Position numbers and translations under genes: made by a program. A stretch of DNA of 59,685 bases, filler included, from Thelocarpon superellum (taxonomy: Eukaryota): NCBI GenBank assembly GCA_026025795.1. It is 4 parts of 4 records of this genome, joined end to end, with 100 filler letters (N's around TTAATTAATTAA, not from the genome) between each part and the next. Parts side by side here need not be neighbours in the genome. Positions count along the whole stretch, not along the records: positions 1 to 14,947 come from JAPEUG010000422.1; 3 more parts are not named here. One strand, written 5' to 3'. Numbering within the stretch: the first letter of the stretch is position 1; every line of letters starts with the position of its first letter. Below, in pieces: positions 4,295 to 25,325 of the stretch. Below the pieces are notes generated by a model. That model had not been told where the DNA came from. It ran no database searches and was given only the letters and a program-made list of their open reading frames with translations.

Positions 4295-5907
4295 TGACCG
4301 TCTGCCATTCGTTTGCTGTGAAGAATTGTTGGCTCAACGGAACGATGTGGGACCGGAGAACGACACAGCCCATCATTCACCTGTCTCCTGGGGACGTTCA
4401 GGAAACGGCTGTGCACCAAGTCACTTAGGCGAATGGCGTCATGGCGGCAACACCTCACACCTCGTCCTGCCAGATCTCGACAGATCTCGACAGAGGCTAG
4501 AGACGCCGCACAGCTGCTGTGATGTTCACCTGCCCTTGAACCACTGGGAGTCACAGGTGCCATCGCGATTGTATTCTACTAGTGTAATATTGTAATCACC
4601 TACCAGGACTTTCGGACCGAGAACTGTAGCGCCAGTAGCCTTGAATGGGGTGGCCGAATTTGAAGACGTCAAATGAAGGCTTCCGTTGTATCTTCCAAGG
4701 GCATGTGGGCCGAGCACACGGGGTCGGATGGACCAGTGAATGAACAAGCACGTAGAGCTCCGGCAGGGGTGCGTGGGGTAGTGTGAGCCTATGTCAGTGG
4801 GTGGCACTGCGGCGAGGCCGTCGACACGGGCGAGAATGTGACTTGTCGGCAGTAACGCGTGACGTCGCCACTATCTGCAGTGTGTGTCAGCGGATGGGGG
4901 AGATGCTGCCGGCTTCGTACCCGAGCTCCGGGCCCCGACGCAGCCTGTCAGGCTCGCCACGGCTGGCCCTAGGGACGTCGTACGGCTCGACGCTCATACG
5001 CCGAACGGAGCTGGTCTTCCGCTAAGCACTGCGCCGACTGGCCCGTAGAGGGTCGGACGTTTCGAAGGCAGCGCGGCCGGTCACAAGGCAAACCCCTCGC
5101 CTGCCAGCGATCGGCGGTCCTGGCGCCTGTCATGTTCAGCAGCCTCCTTTCTCCCGTCAAACCACACAGTTGTACGCTCTCCGCTCTTGCGTGGGTGTTG
5201 ACCACATTACTCGGACACTTCCTTCTTGCGCAGCGACCGATCCGAGACCTAGGTCACGCTTCGCGCTGGTCGTTTGGACTACTTGATCGGAATCTCATAC
5301 GCCTCGCATGCCTCGTATGCCCCTCTTCATTCATCAGTCACATGTGTTTTGGAGGGAGATTGAGGCGGCAGCGAAGCCCACATGCTCCCGAGCAACAGAC
5401 ACGACCTGGAGCCCAACTTGCAGCTTTTGGTGCACCCTGCCCTCCGCGGACCCGTCCGCGGCATCGATGACGGATGATGCAAGGGATCATGGGTTGGAGT
5501 GTTAGATAGGATACCTAGCTTTGTCCCGGCGAAGGACAAGGAAAGAGCTGTGCGCCAGGACGTTCTTGTTCCCTGCTCCGCAACAGCCCCGATTACCTCC
5601 CTGCGCCTGCACGGCAACGTAGCGGATCGGCCGCCACCCGACCTTCCCCAGACTGGGGTAGCCAGGGTGCTCCAGCCTGAGCGCGTGCGCCATGTGCAAC
5701 ACCCTGAGCCACCGAACACACCGCCTCGTCACTGCACCGGCCGTGCTCTCCACGTTACGGCTACGTTGGTGCCAACCAAGTTCTGGCTCGTAGCACGAGC
5801 TGAGGCACTCTGGCCATATCCCCTTGGCCATATCCCCTCGCTCCATCCTGATTCACAACTCCCTCTTCCCATGCAACCCTCCCCCACTTCGAGCCCCTCG
5901 GTATCGC

Positions 5908-6006
5908 CTCGTCACCCTCGTCACCCTCGTCACCCTCGTCACCCTCGTCACCCTCGTCACCCTCGTCACCCTCGTCACCCTCGTCACCCTCGTCACCCTC
6001 GTCACC
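5908..6006. repeat. Perfect 9-bp tandem repeat (CTCGTCACC)x11
   Basis: Read directly. It produces the PRH/LVT/GDE repeat ORFs in the track and lies about 120 bp upstream of the lipase ATG. Confidence 0.95.
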
Positions 6007-6126
6007 ACCGCAAGCCATGTAAAGAGGAGTCGCGGACCACGTCGACCAACGTCATCCGAGTGCCGCCCGCAAGTCCTCCATCACTACCGGCCGGGCCGGG
6101 ACGGATGGCGTCTCGTCAGATGCACC

Positions 6127-8598
6127 ATGTCCTTCTTACAGAGTGCCCCAACGGTCCTGCATGACCTCGAGCAGCGACTGAGCCCGCGTCCCAAGCCGAA
6201 TGGACCCCCGCCCAGCACAAGCAGCGGAGGATGGCTCACGTCGCTCGTGCGCTTGGTCCGCATGCCGGGCGACTCCGTCGCTGCGGTGTGGGAGGCCTTG
6301 CGCGAGGGGCACACGGTCGAGGAGCGCGCGGCGCTCGCCGGGCGAGAGCACCGCACCCAGATCCTGTACGCGCGACAGGCCAACGCCGCCACCTTTGGTG
6401 AATGGCGAGACGCGGCGGAGGAGCTCGACCTGCTGGAGGGCAATCACGACTGGAAAGCGACGGACGAGTCGCCCGACTATAATGCCGCCCTGGTCGAGGC
6501 ACGGCTGAAGGAGCTGGACGAGGCCCGCATTAGCTGTGACGTGCGACGCATGCTGTTCCTCGTGCGCACGTCGCTGACCCGTGGCCTGGGGGACATGGGC
6601 AACATCAAGCTCTACCAGCACTCGCACATCGGCACGAAGAACCTGATCGAGCGGTATATCAACTCCACCCTCGAGACGCTGGACTCGCTCGTGGCCCTGT
6701 CAGCGCGGCATGCCCCGCCGGGCATGGACTCGAAATTCGTCCTCGAGCAGATCTTGTCGGCCCGACAGTCGTTCGGTCGGAGCGCCTTGCTGCTGTCGGG
6801 TGGCGCGACGTTTGGGATGAGCCACATTGGCGTGCTGAAGACGCTGTGGGAGGCCCGCCTCCTGCCCCGCATCATCTCCGGTGCCTCGGCCGGGAGCATT
6901 GTGTGCAGCGTCATCTGCACCCAGACCGACGAGCAGATTCCCGCCCTGCTCGAGAATTTTGCCTATGGGGATCTGTCCGTCTTCGAGCCTGAAGGCACCG
7001 AGGACGGCATCCTCAAGCGTGTGGCTCGATTCCTCAAGTTCGGAGCTTGGATTGACATTGCGCATCTGGTGCGGGTCATGAAGGAACTGTTGGGGGACAT
7101 GACCTTCCAAGAAGCTTATAACCGCACCCGACGCATTCTCAACATCTGCGTCTCGAGTGCGAGCCTATACGAACTACCTCGACTACTCAACTACGTCACT
7201 GCGCCGAATGTCTTGATCTGGTCGGCCGTGTAAGTCCTCGTCCCCTTGGACTCGCCCGCCTCCAGGCTGACTGGTCCTCTTCTCCCCAGCGCAGCCTCCT
7301 GCTCGGTCCCCTTGGTCTTCTCCGCCACCTCGCTGCTGGCCAAGGACCCGAAGACGGGCGAGGCGGTGCCGTGGAATCCATCGCCGCAGCGCTGGATCGA
7401 CGGATCCGTGGACAATGATCTCCCTATGACACGGCTGGCGGAGATGTTCAATGTCAACCACTTCATCGTCTCCCAGGTCAACCCGCACGTCGTCCCCTTT
7501 CTTGCCAAAGACGAAGATGCCGTGTCGGCTGGGCGGGACGGTGCGGCGGCCGGGCCAGGCTACGTGGACGCCTTCCTGAACCTAGCCAAGGGCGAGGCGC
7601 TGCATCGGATGCACGTCTTGACCGAGATGGGCATCTTCCCCAATACCTTGACCAAGTGTCGATCGGTGCTGAGCCAGCGATACTCGGGCGACATCACCAT
7701 CTTTCCCGAGATCTCGTACGCAAATTATCCTCGAATGCTCACCAATCCCACGACGGACTTCATGCTGCGTGCGACGGTGTGCGGGGAGCGGGCGACGTGG
7801 TCGAAGCTGAGCCGGGTGCGCAACCACTGTGCCATCGAGTTGGCCCTCGATGACGCCGTGCAGCAGCTGCGAGCGCGGGTGGTCTTCAGCCCCAGCCAGG
7901 TCAACCTACGGCTCAGCGCCTTTGAACCGCTCGCCGGCACGGCGGCGGCAACCTCGCGGCCCAGCGCGGAGCGTGGCCGGGGCCGGGGCCGGGCGGGTCG
8001 GGTGCGACGGACCGGGTCGCAGGACATTGATGGCCCTACGGGGGGCCTCTACACCACGGCCCAACCCCCGGCCGTGCCTGGCGCGGAGCGGCCGACAGGC
8101 TTCCTGGCTAGTCGGAGCACGACGGCGCTCCACCATGCGCCGACGTTCATCCCCTCGCAGCGACGAGTGGACTCCGCCTCGCGGCCCCCGCGGCTGTCCA
8201 TCCCACATCTCGGGGACGTCACGTCTTCGGGCGGCGACACGTCGCACTCTCCCCATGAGTCGTCCGATCACGCATCGGACGCTAGCTCGAGCAGCTCCCC
8301 ATCCTCCCCTTCGTACTTTCGACAGGCCTCGACCGCCGCGTCACAGACCCTGTTTCCGTTTGCCTCCCAACCGGCGACGCCGCACTGGGGCCAGAAGCGA
8401 TGGGGATTCTTCTCCATGGTGTCTCCGCCCAGCACCCGCGCGCCCTCGCCGTCGTCGACGCCGCCCATGCAATCCTCCCTGATCATGACGCCCTCGACGC
8501 AGACGAGCTCGCCTGACGCCAAGCAGCGCCGTGCGCCAAGTCATCGGGCGGGCGCTGAGGCCGGCAAGAGCGGCACCTCCGACCCCAAGGCTCGGTGA
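6127..8598 (+). CDS. TGL4: Patatin-like triacylglycerol lipase, TGL4/TGL5 type; exons 6127-7229, 7290-8598
   Basis: N-terminal region typical of Tgl lipases (EWRDAAEELDLLEGNHDWK...RTSLTRGLGDMG). Patatin motifs SGGATFG, GASAG and WIDGSV, plus LLNYVTAPNVLIWSAV|AASCSVP. The GTAAGT...GCTGAC...CAG intron 7230-7289 joins the two ORFs in frame. Low-complexity S/P-rich tail. Confidence 0.9.
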
Positions 8599-10210: not shown

Positions 10211-11307
10211 TCAGAGGTTCAGGGCAAACATCGCCGCCGCCAGGAGGACAGCGATAGATCCGGCGCGCGTAGCGGTCCCGTCGCTTGTGGTGGCCGACGG
10301 CGCAGGCGTCAAGCTCCCCGTGGACGAGACACTTGTCGTGGCATTGGTGGTCGAGTTGGTGGTCGCATTGGCGGGTGCCACCGCCACTCCGTTGTTGGAC
10401 TCGAGACTGCACGTCGCGTTGGGGCTTAGCGGACACTGCTTGTCCGTGCAGATGCTCTGCAGTTGCGGTCCTTGCGACGGAATGACCGTCGTGGGCGGAG
10501 AGCACCGGTAGTCGAACAACTTGCCCAGAGCCTCGCCCACCGTCGTCACGTCTTCCGTCGCGACGCCGAATGAGGCGGCCGATAGACCGACTTGCGTGAT
10601 GAAGTAGCCCACTTCGAACGGGTCGAGAGCCATGAATCTGTCCGTGGCTCATTAGCCATCCCTCCCACCACCGCGCGCACTCGCTCCTGATGGGGCCTTA
10701 CTTGTGAACCTGGTACATGCTCTTGCCAGCGGCGTAGGGCGGGAAGGCGCTTCCTCCCTGCAGTGTGCAGCCAAGGAGTACACCAAAGTATTGGTACAGA
10801 TGCGTGAGCAGCTTACTGCAGGACATGGATCAGACGTGAAGACGGTCGCGGAGTGAGGTGCTTACTATTGGTTGGACGTCGTGCCATTGGCTGCCATGTT
10901 CAACTTCAGCGGCGCAGCACCGCCGTCGTCCAGAAAGTTGACCGATTGGCCCGATGACCCGCCCTCGTTGGTCGACAACAGCATGCCGTCAAAGTACTGC
11001 AACAGATTGACGGCGGTGCCATTGTACGTGCCAGGGGTCAGGATGCCAGGCACGGCGATGCCCACATTCGGCTTCGTATAGTTGCCAATGACCGCCGTGT
11101 TCTTGCCATTGTCAGCCGGGCTCCCGCTCCATCCAATCACGTTTGACGCTGGCTTACCACGACGAGGGTGAGCAACTCCAGCTGATTCTCCGCGGTGTTG
11201 TTCTTCAACAACGCCGTGGTGTAGTAGTCACACACGGAAACATTGGCCGGCCGCTGGGCGACGGCCTGGCCAATGGCCGCCAACAGAACGAAGCTCTTGA
11301 GAAGCAT
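10211..11307 (-). CDS. Secreted, probably GPI-anchored protein with a truncated (2/2) globin-like domain; exons 11307-11158, 11101-10866, 10815-10702, 10637-10211
   Basis: Three GTAAG...AG introns with branch sites give one continuous frame: signal peptide MLLKSFVLLAAIGQAVA, core ...YKLLTHLYQYFGVLLGC...PYAAGKSMYQVHKFMALDPFEVGYFITQVGLSAASFGV..., N-glycosylation sequons, S/T-rich stalk and hydrophobic C-terminus (SIAVLLAAAMFALNL). The gene model is well supported. The globin call is an inference. Confidence 0.85.
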
Positions 11308-19649: not shown

Positions 19650-20019
19650 CAACTACGTTCACGTTCAAAGACACGATGAAAGTGCTGTCCATTACGAGAA
19701 CTGGACACGGTCCCAATGGAGAGAAGTCGCTTCATGGACAATGCAGCTAGGTTGCCCGTTGGGGTTTGTATTGTAGCAGCCTAGCTGGGCAGAAGGTGCA
19801 TGTCGGAATCCATTGATGTGGATTGCTCGGACGCGTCTGTTCCGGCGCTCCTGTAAGTGCTCAGTCTCGAGAGTTGAGTTGAGAGCTACTCGCGTATCAG
19901 ACCGAGTCCGGGATCCCCCGGGCCGATTTAGATCTCGTGCCCCACCATCGACTCTCTCTTCACGCTTCCCACATCATCGAGATGGCCATCCGAGATTTGT
20001 GATCTCGTAGGAGTCCATC

Positions 20020-20961
20020 ATGATGTTGAGGACCCCCCATGTGCTCCTCTCCTCCTACACTGGACTGAGCTCCATCAATACTGCCTCTCCCCATCTCCAT
20101 CAGATCCATACGTCATCAACCCGCTTTGACTCGTCCCGCCCACCGTCATGGCGGCATCGAAGAGGATACGCCAGAGTCTCCGATGACAGTCATGACAAGC
20201 TCACCTGGCCCGAGACCGGCCATCCCACCGTCTCTCCCACTCCATACCAGATCTTTTGCCAGAAGAAGGGTGCCCCGTACTCCAAGCGGCGTTTCTACGA
20301 GCTGGTCAAGCTATACCATCCCGACTGGCACGGGCAAGGTCGACCATCGGGCGTCGATCAACTATCGCACACCACGAAGCTCGAGCGGTACCGCCTCGTC
20401 GTAGCTGCCAACGACATTCTCTCCGATCCCGTCAAGCGCAGCGCCTACGACCGCTACGGCGCCGGGTGGAACGGCTTCCCGGAAGCGAGCGGGCGATGGA
20501 ACCAGAACACCCGCGGTTATGGCAACGGGAGCAGTGCGAATCAGGCGTGGGGTCAAGGCGATCGGTCGCCCAGTCAGAACGCCACCTGGGAGGACTGGGA
20601 GCGGTGGTACCAGCGCGACGCCAAGGGGCCTCAGCAGCCGCTGTACTTTGGTAACGGCGCCTTCTTCTCGCTCGTTGTCATGTTGGCCGCGCTGGGAGGC
20701 GTGGGGCAGGCGACCCGCGCAGGGAACTACAGCATGTCTTTCCTGGAGGAGCGCGACCGCTTGCATGACGAGACCAGCAAGGAGTTGATCCGGCGGCGGC
20801 AGGACGCCACCACGTACAGCCATCGAGACGAGCGGATCGAGAGTTTTCTGAAGACACGGGATCCGGACGGTTATGGTGTCGCCAATCCCGACGAGGACGC
20901 GTATCGGAGGCTATCGGGCGACCGGGAGATTGGCTCTAGCAGCGACTCCAAGGGTCGGTGA
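20020..20961 (+). CDS. JID1: J-domain (DnaJ/Hsp40) protein, JID1-like, probably mitochondrial
   Basis: TPYQIF...KRRFYELVKLYHPD...ERYRLVVAANDILSDPVKRSAYD J-domain with HPD. Also NATWEDWERW motif, one TM segment and a basic/Ser-rich N-terminus. Confidence 0.85.
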   Translation: MMLRTPHVLLSSYTGLSSINTASPHLHQIHTSSTRFDSSRPPSWRHRRGYARVSDDSHDKLTWPETGHPTVSPTPYQIFCQKKGAPYSKRRFYELVKLYHPDWHGQGRPSGVDQLSHTTKLERYRLVVAANDILSDPVKRSAYDRYGAGWNGFPEASGRWNQNTRGYGNGSSANQAWGQGDRSPSQNATWEDWERWYQRDAKGPQQPLYFGNGAFFSLVVMLAALGGVGQATRAGNYSMSFLEERDRLHDETSKELIRRRQDATTYSHRDERIESFLKTRDPDGYGVANPDEDAYRRLSGDREIGSSSDSKGR

Positions 20962-21079: not shown

Positions 21080-23289
21080 TCAGAGACTACGCTGCAACCC
21101 AGTCTCTTCAGGCCGGAACCACATGGTAGTCAGATCGTGCAGAACCTCCCGGGCGCCCTTCTGTGCCTCTACCGATGTCTTGGCCTGACATTCAATATAC
21201 ACTGGGTGCAAAGTCGAGTCAGCTGAGGTCTGGTCGAGTCGTAGGCCGACCACGAAAACTCACGTTTGATCTTCGGCTCCGTGCCCGAGCCACGGATGGT
21301 AAACCGGACGGTGGGGCCGGAAGAGTTATCGGCCAAGTCTTCCGCAAGCTCGCAAGTGATCATCTGGCTGTCCCTCGAGACGGGCAGAGCCGGGACATGG
21401 TCGGGCGTGCTGGAGTCATAACCGGTGGTCAGGTCGCGCCACCGCGAGATGCGGCGTCTCGCCAGGCGTGGCGGGAATGGGTCGCCGAGCTGGCGGATAT
21501 TGTCGAAGACGTCCTTGGTGATGCTCGGGTCTGGCGCGATGAAGTACGTGTTTGCTGTCTCGAAGTAGCCGTATGTTTCGTAGAGTTGCTGCAGTTTGGT
21601 CCACGGGGTCCATCCCTGCGTCTTCCACCTCGCCATGGCGCTGAGGAAGACAGAGCCCGCGGCGATGGCGTCTTTGTCGTGCACGACCGACGAGATCATA
21701 TACCCAATGGCTTCTTCGAAGGCATAGGGTGTGTCGTAGCCCTTTGAGGCTAAATCCAACGCCTTGTTTCCGAGCCACTTGAACCCCGTCAGCGTCTCCT
21801 CGAAGTGAAATCCCTCGGCCTGGGCCATGGCTTGGAGCATCGACGTCGACACGGTGGAGCTGAGCATTGCCACTTTCGACCGGGATTTGTCAGGACGATA
21901 TGTGTCCAGCACGTGTGAGGCGAGGAGAACGCCGACTTGATTGCCGGTCAATTGATGCCATTCTGAGCTGGCGGAGAGGTCAGAGGTCAAGCTCATGGAC
22001 GGAGGAAGCTCCTTCGTCTCAAACTTACCCGACCTTCTCCGCGACCGCAAGTCGATCAGCATCTGGATCGTTGGCGATGACGGTCTTTATGCCATGCTCA
22101 TCGGCGGTCGCGAGCGCCAAGTCCAAGGCCCCCGGTTCCTCGGGATTCGGGAAGCGAACCGTGGGGAAGTCGGGGTCTGGGGAGGCCTGGAAAAGGTCAG
22201 AGTCGCCCGCGATAGGAGGGCGCTACGAACCTGCTGTTGCACGACAATCATTCCAGACAATATTCCCATTCGGCTGACTGCTTCCGTCATGTAAGGCAAG
22301 CCGACCCCGTGCATCGGCGTGTAAACAAATCGCAGCGCTGGATCATGCTTCCACGAGCTTATGGCTTTCTCGACCGCCCTAAAGTATGCCGCTTTGAGAG
22401 GTGTTAAGACGTGCTCCACCAATGAGTTCTTGGCATCGACAACGCCTTCGTCCCAAGAAAGCGGTTCCAGGTTCTCCAGGATGGACTTGGCAATCTCGCT
22501 GTCGTATGGTGAGATGATCTGACACCCATTGGAGAAGTACACTTTGTAACCTTGGCGGAGTCAGCCTTGTCGTCCTCCAGAATGGCCGTGGGACGTGCCG
22601 TTGTCCTGAGCAGAATTCTGAACCAGGCCATGAAGATCAGCCTTGATTAATCCGTATCCAGATTATGGAGAGCCTTACATGACTTGCTGTGACCATGACG
22701 CCTGCTGAAGCTCCCAGCATCCGGACGCCAAAGGGTACAAGCGGAGTATGGGCTAGATCCTCGTACCACCACACCTTGATTCCTTTGGCCACAAATGCTG
22801 CCGCAGTGAGCCTCGCAAACGAGTCGGAATGGTGTCGGGCGTCATGGCCGACGACAACTCCTTTCGATGCGGCATATGGGTCTGTCGCCAGAAGATAAGC
22901 TGCCAACCCTTGGGAGGCTTGAATGATGGTCAATGAGTTGAGTCGAGAGAATCCAGCTTCCATCTTCGCCCGAAGACCTGATCGGTGTCAGAGCGCCTCG
23001 AGCAACTCTCCTTCGGTGGGGAGGTACCGGCGGTGCCAAAGGCGATGCCTGGAACATGTCAATGACCAGTTGCGGCTTCAGGTGGTTTCCCACGAGACCG
23101 ACGCTTGCGTAAACGTTTCTCCAGTTCAACCAAGTTATTGGATGCAACGAAGCCCTCGATTTCTTCTCTGGTGTTGACATCCTAGCGTAGGCATGTATTA
23201 GAGCTCGTGGCCTGTTACCTGGGGAGTGCTTGTGGATATACCTTGTCGAGGCGGAGCCATTCATCCGCGAGCACTTGTAGTGACTCCAT
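21080..23289 (-). CDS. PGM3: Phosphoglucomutase/phosphoribomutase (PGM2/PGM3 alpha-D-phosphohexomutase), multi-exon
   Basis: Spliced frame starts [26 protein letters not shown]. Motifs [20 protein letters not shown] (phospho-Ser), [29 protein letters not shown] (metal loop), [21 protein letters not shown]. Stop at 21082-21080. Confidence 0.93.
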
Positions 23290-23615
23290 ACTATGATCAA
23301 GATTCAAGCAAAGGCTCTAAATCTAAGGCATTGTGACAGTCTGTGATGGATTGCTCCTCTCTAGATGTGTTGATGTTCATGTCGAGTGGTTCACTCGTGG
23401 CGTGTGCGGTGCGTTTCCGGTACCGTAGGAGTATGTTACGAGTACACGCCGGCGGGGCAATCTTCCGTCCGTGACTGTGGGCGTGTGCGATGTCCCGATA
23501 TCCCCCCTTCCACCTTGCCCTCGGCGTGTAAACAAAATGGCCATCACGAGGCAAGAAGATCAATGACAGGCGTCCCCATTTCCCTCCTCATCTCACGCGA
23601 TCATCTGCCTCCAAT

Positions 23616-25325
23616 ATGTCGCTCACCGATTCAGCGAGGGAGCGTAAGAACGTCATCCTGTCGCGCCGACAGATCGAGACCCTCATTGCCCAAGGACGGA
23701 AAATCATCATAGTTGAGAACAAGGTCCTCAAAGTTGACGGCTGGCTTAAGTATCATCCCGGAGGTGATAAGGCAATCATGCATATGGTCGGACGGGATGC
23801 TACTGATGAGGTCAACGCTCTGCATTCTCCCGAGGCACGCCAACGGATGAATACTTTTCAGATCGGGCGTCTAGAGGGGCGGTGGGACAATTTCGTACCT
23901 CCCATACAAGGCGGAGCATTTTACGAGGTGTCGGATGTTGATACCACGGCCGGCCGTGACGATTCTCCCTCGAGCCATGAGAGTTCCCGTTCGGCCTCGC
24001 CTTTGTTCGATGACAACGAATCCCATCTACGGTCAGCAAGACGCCGAAAAGAAGCCCCGGCGTCGGCCGACCAGCGATCCTCGTCCGTTTCATCCATTTC
24101 CTCCGTGGATGAGGGAAAAGAACACGCTTCGAAGTCGACATACCTCGACACGGAAACGCAAAAGGCCATCGATCTCGACCGCTCCAAATATCCGCCCTTG
24201 GACCCGGTGACGCAAGACGAGATTGTACGGAAATATCGCCTGCTGAACGAGAGAATCCACGCCGAGGGCCTCTACCAGTGTTCTTACCCGTCCTATCTGA
24301 TCGAGATCTGTCGGTACACCCTACTCTTCGCGCTGAGCATGGCCTTCCTCCGGGCGGGCTGGTACGGGACGAGTGGGCTGTTCATGGGCATGTTCTGGCA
24401 CCAGCTGGTCTTCACTGCCCACGATGCTGGCCACATGGGCATCACGCATAACTTCCATGTCGACACGGTCATCGGTATCATCATCGCCGATTTCTTCGGG
24501 GGGCTGAGCATCGGGTGGTGGAAGCGAAATCACAATGTCCACCACATCGTCACCAATTCCCCCGAGCACGATCCCGACATCGAGCACATGCCCTTCTTCG
24601 CCATCTCGCCGCGCTTCTTCTCCTCCCTGACCTCGACCTACTACGACCGCGTCATGGCCTACGATGTTTTCGCCAAGGTTTTGGTGCGCTACCAACAATA
24701 CTTGTATTACCCCGTCCTCACCCTGGGCCGGTTCAACCTCTATCGGCTCAGCTGGGAATACTTGCTGCTCGGGCAAGGCCCAAAGAAGGGCCCTGCATGG
24801 TGGCACCGATGGCTCGAAATCGCCGGCAACGTCTTTTTCTGGGTCTGGTTCGGATACGGACTCGTCTACCGGAGCATCCCGACAGCCTCGGGCCGCGTCG
24901 CATTCGTGCTGGTCAGCCACATGATCACGATGCCACTCCACGTCCAGATCACGCTCAGCCACTTCGCCATGAGCACCGCCGACCTGGGGGTGCAGGAGTC
25001 CTTTCCCCAGAAGATGCTCCGCACAACCATGGACGTGGACTGCCCCGCCTGGCTGGACTTCCTTCACGGCGGGCTGCAGTTCCAGGCGGTGCACCACTTG
25101 TACCCGCGGATCCCACGACACAATCTCCGCCGCACGCAAAAACTCGTGCAGGAATTCTGTGCAGACGTGGGTATCCCGTATGCGCTGTATGGCTTCGTCG
25201 ATGGCAACAAGGAGGTGCTGGGTCGGTTGGGTGAGGTGGGCCGTCAGGCCGCCATTCTCGCCAAGTGCCAGAGATCTATGGCGGAGAGGGGAGCTGTTGG
25301 CACTGCGTTGGGATTCCACCATTGA
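23616..25325 (+). CDS. SLD1: Cytochrome b5-fused sphingolipid delta-8 desaturase (single exon)
   Basis: HPGG cyt-b5 motif, His boxes HDAGH, HNVHH and QAVHH, and TM segments; 569 aa. Confidence 0.93.
   Translation: MSLTDSARERKNVILSRRQIETLIAQGRKIIIVENKVLKVDGWLKYHPGGDKAIMHMVGRDATDEVNALHSPEARQRMNTFQIGRLEGRWDNFVPPIQGGAFYEVSDVDTTAGRDDSPSSHESSRSASPLFDDNESHLRSARRRKEAPASADQRSSSVSSISSVDEGKEHASKSTYLDTETQKAIDLDRSKYPPLDPVTQDEIVRKYRLLNERIHAEGLYQCSYPSYLIEICRYTLLFALSMAFLRAGWYGTSGLFMGMFWHQLVFTAHDAGHMGITHNFHVDTVIGIIIADFFGGLSIGWWKRNHNVHHIVTNSPEHDPDIEHMPFFAISPRFFSSLTSTYYDRVMAYDVFAKVLVRYQQYLYYPVLTLGRFNLYRLSWEYLLLGQGPKKGPAWWHRWLEIAGNVFFWVWFGYGLVYRSIPTASGRVAFVLVSHMITMPLHVQITLSHFAMSTADLGVQESFPQKMLRTTMDVDCPAWLDFLHGGLQFQAVHHLYPRIPRHNLRRTQKLVQEFCADVGIPYALYGFVDGNKEVLGRLGEVGRQAAILAKCQRSMAERGAVGTALGFHH

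Follow-up and report, generated by a model that had tools for sequence, protein, structure and literature searches.

The window analysed here, a stretch of 59,685 nucleotides (filler included) joined from four records of the genome of the lichen fungus Thelocarpon superellum, carries on its minus strand, between positions 11307 and 10211, a four-exon gene for a secretory-type protein whose core (about aa 22-210) is almost certainly a strongly diverged group-1 truncated (2-on-2) haemoglobin (trHb), by both homology and fold. Computed splicing and translation yield a coding sequence of 927 nt and a product of 308 amino acids (aa), which is letter for letter the protein P0005, deposited at NCBI from a metagenome-assembled genome as 'MAG: hypothetical protein M1838_003928 [Thelocarpon superellum]'. 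Exon 1 (11307-11158; start codon 11307-11305) encodes aa 1-50, comprising a signal-peptide-like segment (aa 1-17, 11307-11257), Cys26, a short A-like helix at aa 25-34 and the first part of the B helix, the helices being taken from DSSP of the AlphaFold2 (AF2) model described below. Exon 2 (11101-10866) encodes aa 51-128 plus 2 nt and contains the end of the B helix, a candidate CD1 Phe (Phe87) and a family-specific, beta-rich insertion (aa 57-126, 11083-10874) with near-invariant S/T-x-N and N-F-L-D-x-G-G motifs. Exon 3 (10815-10702; aa 129-166 plus 2 nt) holds the E helix, a lengthened EF/pre-F loop and a one-turn F helix, together with the codons of His134 (10802-10800, position E10) and His166 (10706-10704, position F8) and with Cys145. 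Exon 4, the last (10637-10211; stop codon 10213-10211), begins with the G helix (aa 173-189) and H helix (aa 194-208) of the 2/2 fold (aa 167-210, 10508-10637) and continues into a four-Cys C-terminal extension that packs on the globin core in the model (aa 211-250, 10388-10507; C212, C230, C235 and C243), a Ser/Thr- and sequon-rich stalk that is predicted to be disordered (aa 251-285, 10283-10387) and an end resembling a glycosylphosphatidylinositol (GPI) signal, in which small polar residues precede a 14-residue hydrophobic tail (aa 286-308 plus stop, 10211-10282).

All three introns have a GTAAG donor, an AAG or CAG acceptor and a single CTRAY branch site; they are intron 1 (11102-11157, 56 nt, GTAAGC...AAG), intron 2 (10816-10865, 50 nt, GTAAGC...CAG) and intron 3 (10638-10701, 64 nt, GTAAGG...CAG), all on the minus strand. 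An earlier reading made from the sequence alone (the sequence-only reading) had remarked that the open reading frame (ORF) track overlooks exon 3, and this was correct: the exon was missed by the ORF list because the stop-to-stop frame in which it lies (10698-10829) is only 43 aa long. The peptide strings quoted in that reading are likewise all present in the translated exons. Searched separately against Pfam, the four exon translations gave nothing but a chance match to CytochromB561_N (E=1.5).

The secretory features were judged by hydropathy heuristics, and not by SignalP or NetGPI. On this basis the signal-peptide-like start, Ser/Thr stalk and GPI-type tail that had been proposed for the protein are present as patterns: the hydrophobic N-terminus ends in A-V-A ahead of Q18, Ser and Thr make up 47% of aa 251-290, and the hydrophobic tail, preceded by the small polar residues, has a mean Kyte-Doolittle value of 2.44. 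Nine N-x-S/T sequons are found in the protein. In an alignment of 51 close homologs (A1), 43 reach the threshold of N-terminal hydrophobicity and 47 carry a similar hydrophobic C-terminal tail. Taken together, the hydropathy heuristics and the tails of the homologs suggest that the window protein is probably secreted and GPI-anchored. It contains six Cys (26, 145, 212, 230, 235 and 243) and only two His, H134 and H166, which are the two that the sequence-only reading had singled out; exactly two His also occur in 23 of the 51 close homologs. The mode of anchoring differs elsewhere in the family: in P0210 and P0225 the domain is followed by a single-pass membrane segment, P0210 giving a TM_ErbB1-like Pfam match, and the Dothideomycete-type homologs P0032, P0085 and P0110 have a short W/C-rich tail in place of the GPI-type tail.

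At the level of sequence, the membership of the window protein among the trHbs appears solid as a case of transitive homology, rather than of a direct profile match. Its family profile retrieved 1004 cluster representatives at E<=0.001 from a library clustered at 50% identity. Pfam was scanned with 58 family proteins (26 at E<=10 and 32 at E<=0.001), six of which exceed the 21-bit gathering score of PF01152 (Bac_globin): P0125 (35.7 bits), P0127 (33.3), P0274 (25.6), P0126 (24.4), P0275 (23.7) and P0277 (21.9). All six match the family profile of the window protein, with E-values down to 7.5e-238, and several further family proteins have PF01152 matches below the cut-off. Among the six, P0125, P0127 and P0126 are the multi-copy environmental proteins with the best Bac_globin scores. 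Against PDB sequences, the trHb1 of Tetrahymena pyriformis was found both with a broader profile of 38 sequences (A2, E=0.0033) and with a separate profile of 32 sequences (A3, E=0.0059). Both alignments run from the pre-F loop to the H helix and place the invariant His of the family on His73 of the T. pyriformis chain; with A2, the aa 167-210 region is aligned to T. pyriformis residues 63-113. A phmmer search with the three-domain protein P0127 matched six sequences of Mycobacterium tuberculosis trHbN (E 0.0044-0.011), the alignment spanning helices E to H.

The predicted structures lead to the same superfamily. The AF2 model of the window protein, built with alignment A1, has a mean predicted local distance difference test score (pLDDT) of 84.2, with 224 residues at 90 or higher, and a predicted TM score of 0.78. 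Its helices (25-34, 39-55, 127-142, a single turn at 162-166, 173-189 and 194-208) form the layout of B and E over G and H with a vestigial F helix; a four-stranded beta insertion lies between residues 74 and 105, a short helical turn lies at 84-86, and the four-Cys extension is modelled with mean pLDDT values of 94-97 in blocks of ten residues. Foldseek returned 127 matches in the PDB at E<=10 for this model. Ranks 1-11 are all group-1 trHbs, of Shewanella benthica and M. tuberculosis (trHbN), with E-values of 0.21-2.0, probabilities of 0.38-0.84 and target-normalised TM scores of 0.51-0.54. Among the 49 matches listed, everything with a probability of at least 0.25 is a group-1 trHb, and the rest are large unrelated proteins at 0.08 or lower. 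We also modelled P0213, a distant relative (37% identical to the window protein) from an environmental subfamily with a shorter insertion. Its AF2 model (pLDDT 76.1) finds group-1 trHbs at every listed match through rank 25, at probabilities of 0.89-1.00, target-normalised TM scores of 0.54-0.70 and E-values of 0.02-0.55; its neighbours include trHbN and the proteins of S. benthica, T. pyriformis, Paramecium and Chlamydomonas eugametos as well as THB1, and among the matches listed the group 2 and 3 trHbs and leghaemoglobin rank lower, at 0.41 or less. The ESM Atlas has a separate model of the window protein, and this can be superposed on a bacterial cluster with a PF01152 content of 100% (aligned residues 117/120; TM score 0.83 by target and 0.46 by query). 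The AF2 models, Foldseek and the Atlas agree in a 2-on-2 helical sandwich with a one-turn F helix, and the 2/2 globin fold anticipated by the sequence-only reading is upheld by the two AF2 models and the Atlas superposition.

The alignment of P0127 with trHbN fixes the helix register. The residue under the equivalent of Leu135 differs among the PDB entries, wild-type trHbN having Q there, the GlnE11Val entry V and the GlnE11Ala entry A; because this column varies with the GlnE11 mutations, Leu135 is E11 and the preceding family His134 is E10. Leu131 is aligned here to the trHbN Leu that lies three residues before E10 (E7), a Y/F-F pair to the trHbN F-F pair (E14/E15), Gly144 to the first of the two EF-corner Gly and Tyr156 to the pre-F Tyr. 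The EF/pre-F loop carries a four-residue insertion relative to trHbN in P0127 and 7-8 extra residues in the window protein. His166 is aligned both to the trHbN His that follows Q-V and to T. pyriformis His73, which we take to be F8, so that alignments and conservation alike identify it as the proximal His. The helix ends of the window and P0213 models agree with the E10 register of His134, whose placement rests mainly on these helix ends and on the P0127-trHbN alignment. Phe87 follows the helical turn at 84-86 and lies outside the tool alignments, its assignment as the candidate CD1 residue being made from its conservation and by comparison with the general globin pattern. Two proposals of the sequence-only reading, that the His of its MYQVH string is the F8 His and that the other His occupies E10, are supported by these alignments. 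Its suggestion of loop insertions also holds; they amount to about 70 residues between the B and E helices and 7-8 in the EF/pre-F loop.

Conservation was counted over 297 domain instances; they come from the 150 top-ranked clusters among the 1004 and from earlier matches. His166 is conserved in 255 of 259 instances and His134 in 234 of 244, the two occurring together in 231 of 241, in agreement with the expectation that both would be retained among homologs. Comparable constancy is seen for Phe87 (232/234), Phe139 at E15 (240/249), Cys26 (202/203), Cys145 (248/248), Cys212 (253/256), Cys230 (248/249), Cys235 (242/244) and Cys243 (228/237). Position 134 is Lys in five instances, which are all five repeats of P0160, and by eye also in both repeats of P0332; it is Ser or Asn, with His166 retained, in four domains. 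The sole domain without both His is the second repeat of P0171, in which they were lost together. The E10 ligand of group-1 trHbs is His in GlbN and Lys in THB1, and by analogy the exchange of His for Lys at E10 is what would be expected of an iron ligand. The sub-group of P0160 and P0332 keeps the proximal His and has a diverged insertion; in P0160 the family profile is unmatched at 74-130.

The insertion between B and E has near-invariant motifs of its own (S93, N95, N105-F-L-D108 and G110-G111). A putative Cys26-Cys145 disulfide would link the N-terminal helix with the EF corner, at which the Gly-Gly hinges of ordinary trHbs are packed, and may stand in for those hinges; further putative disulfides would lie within the four-Cys C-terminal extension.

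Several results weigh against reading the window protein as a haem-binding trHb. The affinity to PF01152 that the sequence-only reading proposed to check stands for the six family proteins above the cut-off but fails for the window protein itself, which like nine close homologs gives no match even at E<=10. Profile A1 retrieved no globin from the PDB sequences, its sole match being the tail hub protein of a crAss phage (E=0.17); a phmmer search with P0213 alone retrieved nothing from them; and the sequence E-values to solved globins are no better than 0.003-0.01. Neither model has a Foldseek match at E<=0.001 against the PDB. The definition of group-1 trHbs includes a Tyr at B10 and Gln at E7/E11 that form a distal hydrogen-bond network, and a Gly-Gly hinge at each of the two corners, AB and EF. 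In the window protein, B10 cannot be Tyr because the B helix (39-55) contains none, and E7 and E11 are Leu, which leaves the canonical distal network absent; the AB corner reads T-T/A-L, without a Gly pair, and the EF corner is G144-C145 rather than G-G. Two hallmarks of the group, the B10 Tyr and the AB Gly-Gly, are thus absent. The E10 register has its own difficulty, as the Pfam ranges of some members (for example P0213, 109-158 against profile positions 43-91) show the stretch from the E helix to F8 with hardly any net insertion; coordinate ranges of this kind may fit an E-helix register displaced by one helical turn. Globin folds without haem exist, and the surroundings offer no functional hint: up to 25.3 kb the window contains only housekeeping-like frames and no functionally telling gene, and the domain fusions seen in the family (But2 and O-methyltransferase only) are not functionally telling either.

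Weighing these points, we favour with moderate confidence the reading of the window protein as a secreted, N-glycosylated, disulfide-braced and probably GPI-anchored diverged trHb1 with a putative bis-His haem b centre. Other secreted fungal haem proteins are loaded in the secretory pathway, and haem b would be loaded there in this case as well. One haem b would be bound, with His166 (F8) as the proximal ligand and His134 (E10) as a sixth, displaceable ligand, giving in the resting state a low-spin bis-histidyl centre of the GlbN type. The GPI anchor on its glycosylated stalk would hold the protein at the outer face of the plasma membrane or in the cell wall, where it could carry out redox chemistry on small diffusible species, either scavenging NO, nitrite or peroxide or relaying single electrons. 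The parts of this proposal differ in strength: that haem is bound seems likely, the bis-His ligation is evenly poised, and a redox or scavenging role, as opposed to haem capture or a haem-free role, is put forward tentatively. A sixth ligand that can be displaced would be well suited to transferring electrons or to reacting with NO, nitrite or peroxide. The redox role is favoured over oxygen storage because E7 and E11 are both Leu, which makes the distal side apolar, and because a B10 Tyr is lacking; oxygen storage seems less likely, and stable O2 binding by the putative haem is unlikely.

The same homology could also accommodate a putative five-coordinate haem, or a His134 that hydrogen-bonds the ligand instead of binding iron, in which case the protein would be a trHbN-like NO dioxygenase or an O2/NO binder at the surface. 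The closest solved neighbours, trHbN and the ciliate trHb1s, are O2 binders, the E7 Leu and the E14/E15 aromatic pair are retained as in trHbN, and the four domains with Ser or Asn at 134 keep His166. However, the usual ligand-stabilising network is missing from a pocket with neither B10 Tyr nor E11 Gln, His134 equals the proximal His in conservation and is mainly replaced by Lys, another N-donor, and a dioxygenase outside the cell would have no obvious reductase. We regard this arrangement as unlikely.

The topology of signal peptide, stalk and GPI signal resembles that of the CFEM hemophores, and by analogy the apoprotein might take up external haem between its two His and hand it to an uptake route, acting as a hemophore, receptor or haem store. 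The conservation of both candidate ligands would fit such a role, as would the tandems of two to five domains (P0125, P0126, P0127 and P0160), which recall multi-domain haem receptors. Against this, a globin fold buries its haem deeply and releases it slowly, and the named members of the family come from lichens, saprobes, endophytes and plant pathogens, not from blood-dwelling fungi. There is no uptake gene adjoining the locus; no HGATAR site occurs between 10586 and 13630, promoter included, and no extended iron/nitrogen GATA site of the SreA type in the window, a weak test made with consensus motifs. Haem capture or storage is in our judgement quite improbable.

We assign a similarly low probability to a globin-fold relic without haem, which might serve as a structural or adhesive wall glycoprotein or use its two His to bind a hydrophobic ligand other than haem, or a metal. 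The extreme divergence from PF01152 is in its favour, the invariant residues of the insertion (S93, N95, L107, D108 and G110) could form a new site, and non-haem globin domains are known, the Atlas containing an RsbR-type STAS protein at a TM score of 0.37. Yet the residues that have been kept are those that a haem globin needs, namely the F8 His (255/259), the E10 His, F87 and the E15 Phe, and both His have disappeared jointly in a single degenerate repeat (P0171).

Finally, a relationship to the haem-thiolate haloperoxidases and peroxygenases, which the automatic names would imply ('Heme haloperoxidase family profile domain-containing protein' in UniRef for nine of the 120 homologs listed and 'putative Cloroperoxidase' for an Atlas cluster) and for which the invariant Cys26 at a helix start might be cited, can practically be dismissed, as no peroxidase family was matched in the Pfam scans of the 58 proteins at either threshold, the window protein lacks a P-C-P motif, no haem-thiolate peroxidase stands among the Foldseek matches listed for either model (only a vanadium chloroperoxidase, at a probability of 0.01) and Cys26 co-varies with Cys145, with which it likely forms a disulfide. 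These labels look like propagated mis-annotation.

Compared with the group-1 trHbs of M. tuberculosis, S. benthica, T. pyriformis, Paramecium and Chlamydomonas, the window protein has in common the 2-on-2 sandwich, a long pre-F loop that leads into an F helix of one turn, a Q/E-V-H context around the proximal His, the Leu at E7, the aromatic pair at E14/E15, the EF-corner Gly, the pre-F Y-x-G and similar G and H helices. The known members are cytosolic proteins of about 120 aa without disulfides or glycans, whereas the window protein is of the secretory type and adds to the domain a signal peptide, the insertion of about 70 residues between B and E, the extra EF residues, the four-Cys extension, the stalk and the GPI signal. 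It further departs from them in having no B10 Tyr, Leu in place of Gln at E11, no AB Gly-Gly and a sequence below Pfam detection. A parallel for the candidate sixth ligand is cyanobacterial GlbN (Synechocystis/Synechococcus), whose E10 His has the same spacing to the EF corner as His134. GlbN is bis-histidyl and cytosolic, and its haem is also cross-linked through a His of the H helix; this link has no counterpart in the window protein, with His only at 134 and 166, and GlbN structures are absent among the Foldseek matches listed for either model. THB1 of Chlamydomonas reinhardtii (PDB 6cii and 4xdi) is a cytosolic protein with Lys E10 as distal ligand that works with nitrate reductase. Its structure 6cii lies near the P0213 model (probability 0.90, TM by target 0.67), and the Lys-E10 sub-group of P0160 and P0332 resembles it, but the window protein differs in location and has no such partner.

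The CFEM proteins have an unrelated eight-Cys fold and a different haem ligand. None of the 58 family proteins matches CFEM in Pfam, and the six Cys of the window protein are spaced otherwise. In Candida albicans, the CFEM proteins Rbt5, Pga7 and Csa2 are described as extracellular, GPI-anchored proteins proposed or shown to hold haem (PMC4183699). SsGP1, a GPI-anchored elicitor of Sclerotinia, was considered and set aside as a member of another family, its conserved part being given as a different 'GPI-anchored superfamily' domain at residues 28-121 (PMC11950629).

The globins catalogued for ascomycetes are cytosolic flavohaemoglobins and single-domain globins of the sensor type. A census of globins in 165 fungal genomes records F and S globins in Ascomycota, lists T globins only as the T1 proteins of Allomyces macrogynus and Batrachochytrium dendrobatidis, one blastocladiomycete and one chytrid, and reports none for Ascomycota or Basidiomycota (Hoogewijs et al. 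2012, PMC3287990). Those T1 globins belong to early-diverging fungi and are detectable by ordinary globin searches (PMC3287990). We found no description of a secreted or GPI-anchored truncated globin in ascomycetes in the full-text literature, a coverage that leaves out most subscription journals. What is seen here is a fold and superfamily already known, but in an architecture, a compartment and a lineage that are new for it. Extended to the family, our proposal is that filamentous ascomycetes possess a large, hitherto unrecognised family of truncated haemoglobins that are extracellular, are anchored by GPI or in the membrane and carry His/His or His/Lys haem; they would detoxify NO or peroxide or relay electrons; we hold this to be possible, at a little short of an even chance. 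If true, it would overturn the census view of Dikarya as devoid of T-family globins and change the distribution map of the T globins, it would place a redox-active haem protein on the fungal surface beside CFEM and copper-binding GPI proteins, and it would be the first known globin with a build suited to the oxidising and glycosylating fungal secretory pathway. The family would also offer a natural experiment in which a 2/2 fold has to accommodate disulfides, glycans and, by the distal pocket, an insertion of 70 residues.

The family is without Pfam coverage, and its members are named 'hypothetical', 'uncharacterized', 'secreted protein' or after the haloperoxidase profile; the automatic 'haloperoxidase' and 'chloroperoxidase' labels are not backed by the tests made here. 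Named members among the 120 homologs listed come from many classes of filamentous ascomycetes, the ecological range being that given above, and include Penicillium and Podospora species. Whole-domain copies occur in tandem in P0125 (four copies in 937 aa), P0127 (three in 673 aa), P0126 (two in 537 aa) and P0160 (five in 1221 aa). P0105 and P0113 carry the C-terminal half of the domain in fusion with a But2 C-terminal domain, and P0052, a Phaeomoniella protein of 619 aa, combines the domain with an O-methyltransferase in what is probably a merged gene model. A scan of bacterial and archaeal genomes with profile A3 returned a single locus and no bacterial relative with the insertion. This locus, JAELTX010000282.1 (1-529) of Pedobacter sp. 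ASV17, is 40% identical over query residues 72-187, but it was rejected as a bacterial homolog, the 529-bp contig, with its coverage of 0.96, being most likely a eukaryotic contaminant. tblastn searches of plasmids with P0005 and P0127 gave no match at E<=10.

Around the gene, the window contains frames for a DUF3336 and patatin-like phospholipase protein (5794-8598, plus strand), a DnaJ-domain protein (20011-20961, plus strand), a phosphoglucomutase domain III (21169-22086, minus strand) and a cytochrome-b5 fatty-acid desaturase fusion (23532-25325, plus strand). A weak match to tail hub protein B of crAss-like phages recurs in the G-H helix region of the family (aa ~152-213), with E-values of 0.17 and 0.3 for gp39 of PDB 7qoj and 24.1 bits against a cut-off of 27 for PF25711 (P0126, 418-465); it may reflect chance or a common helical hairpin.

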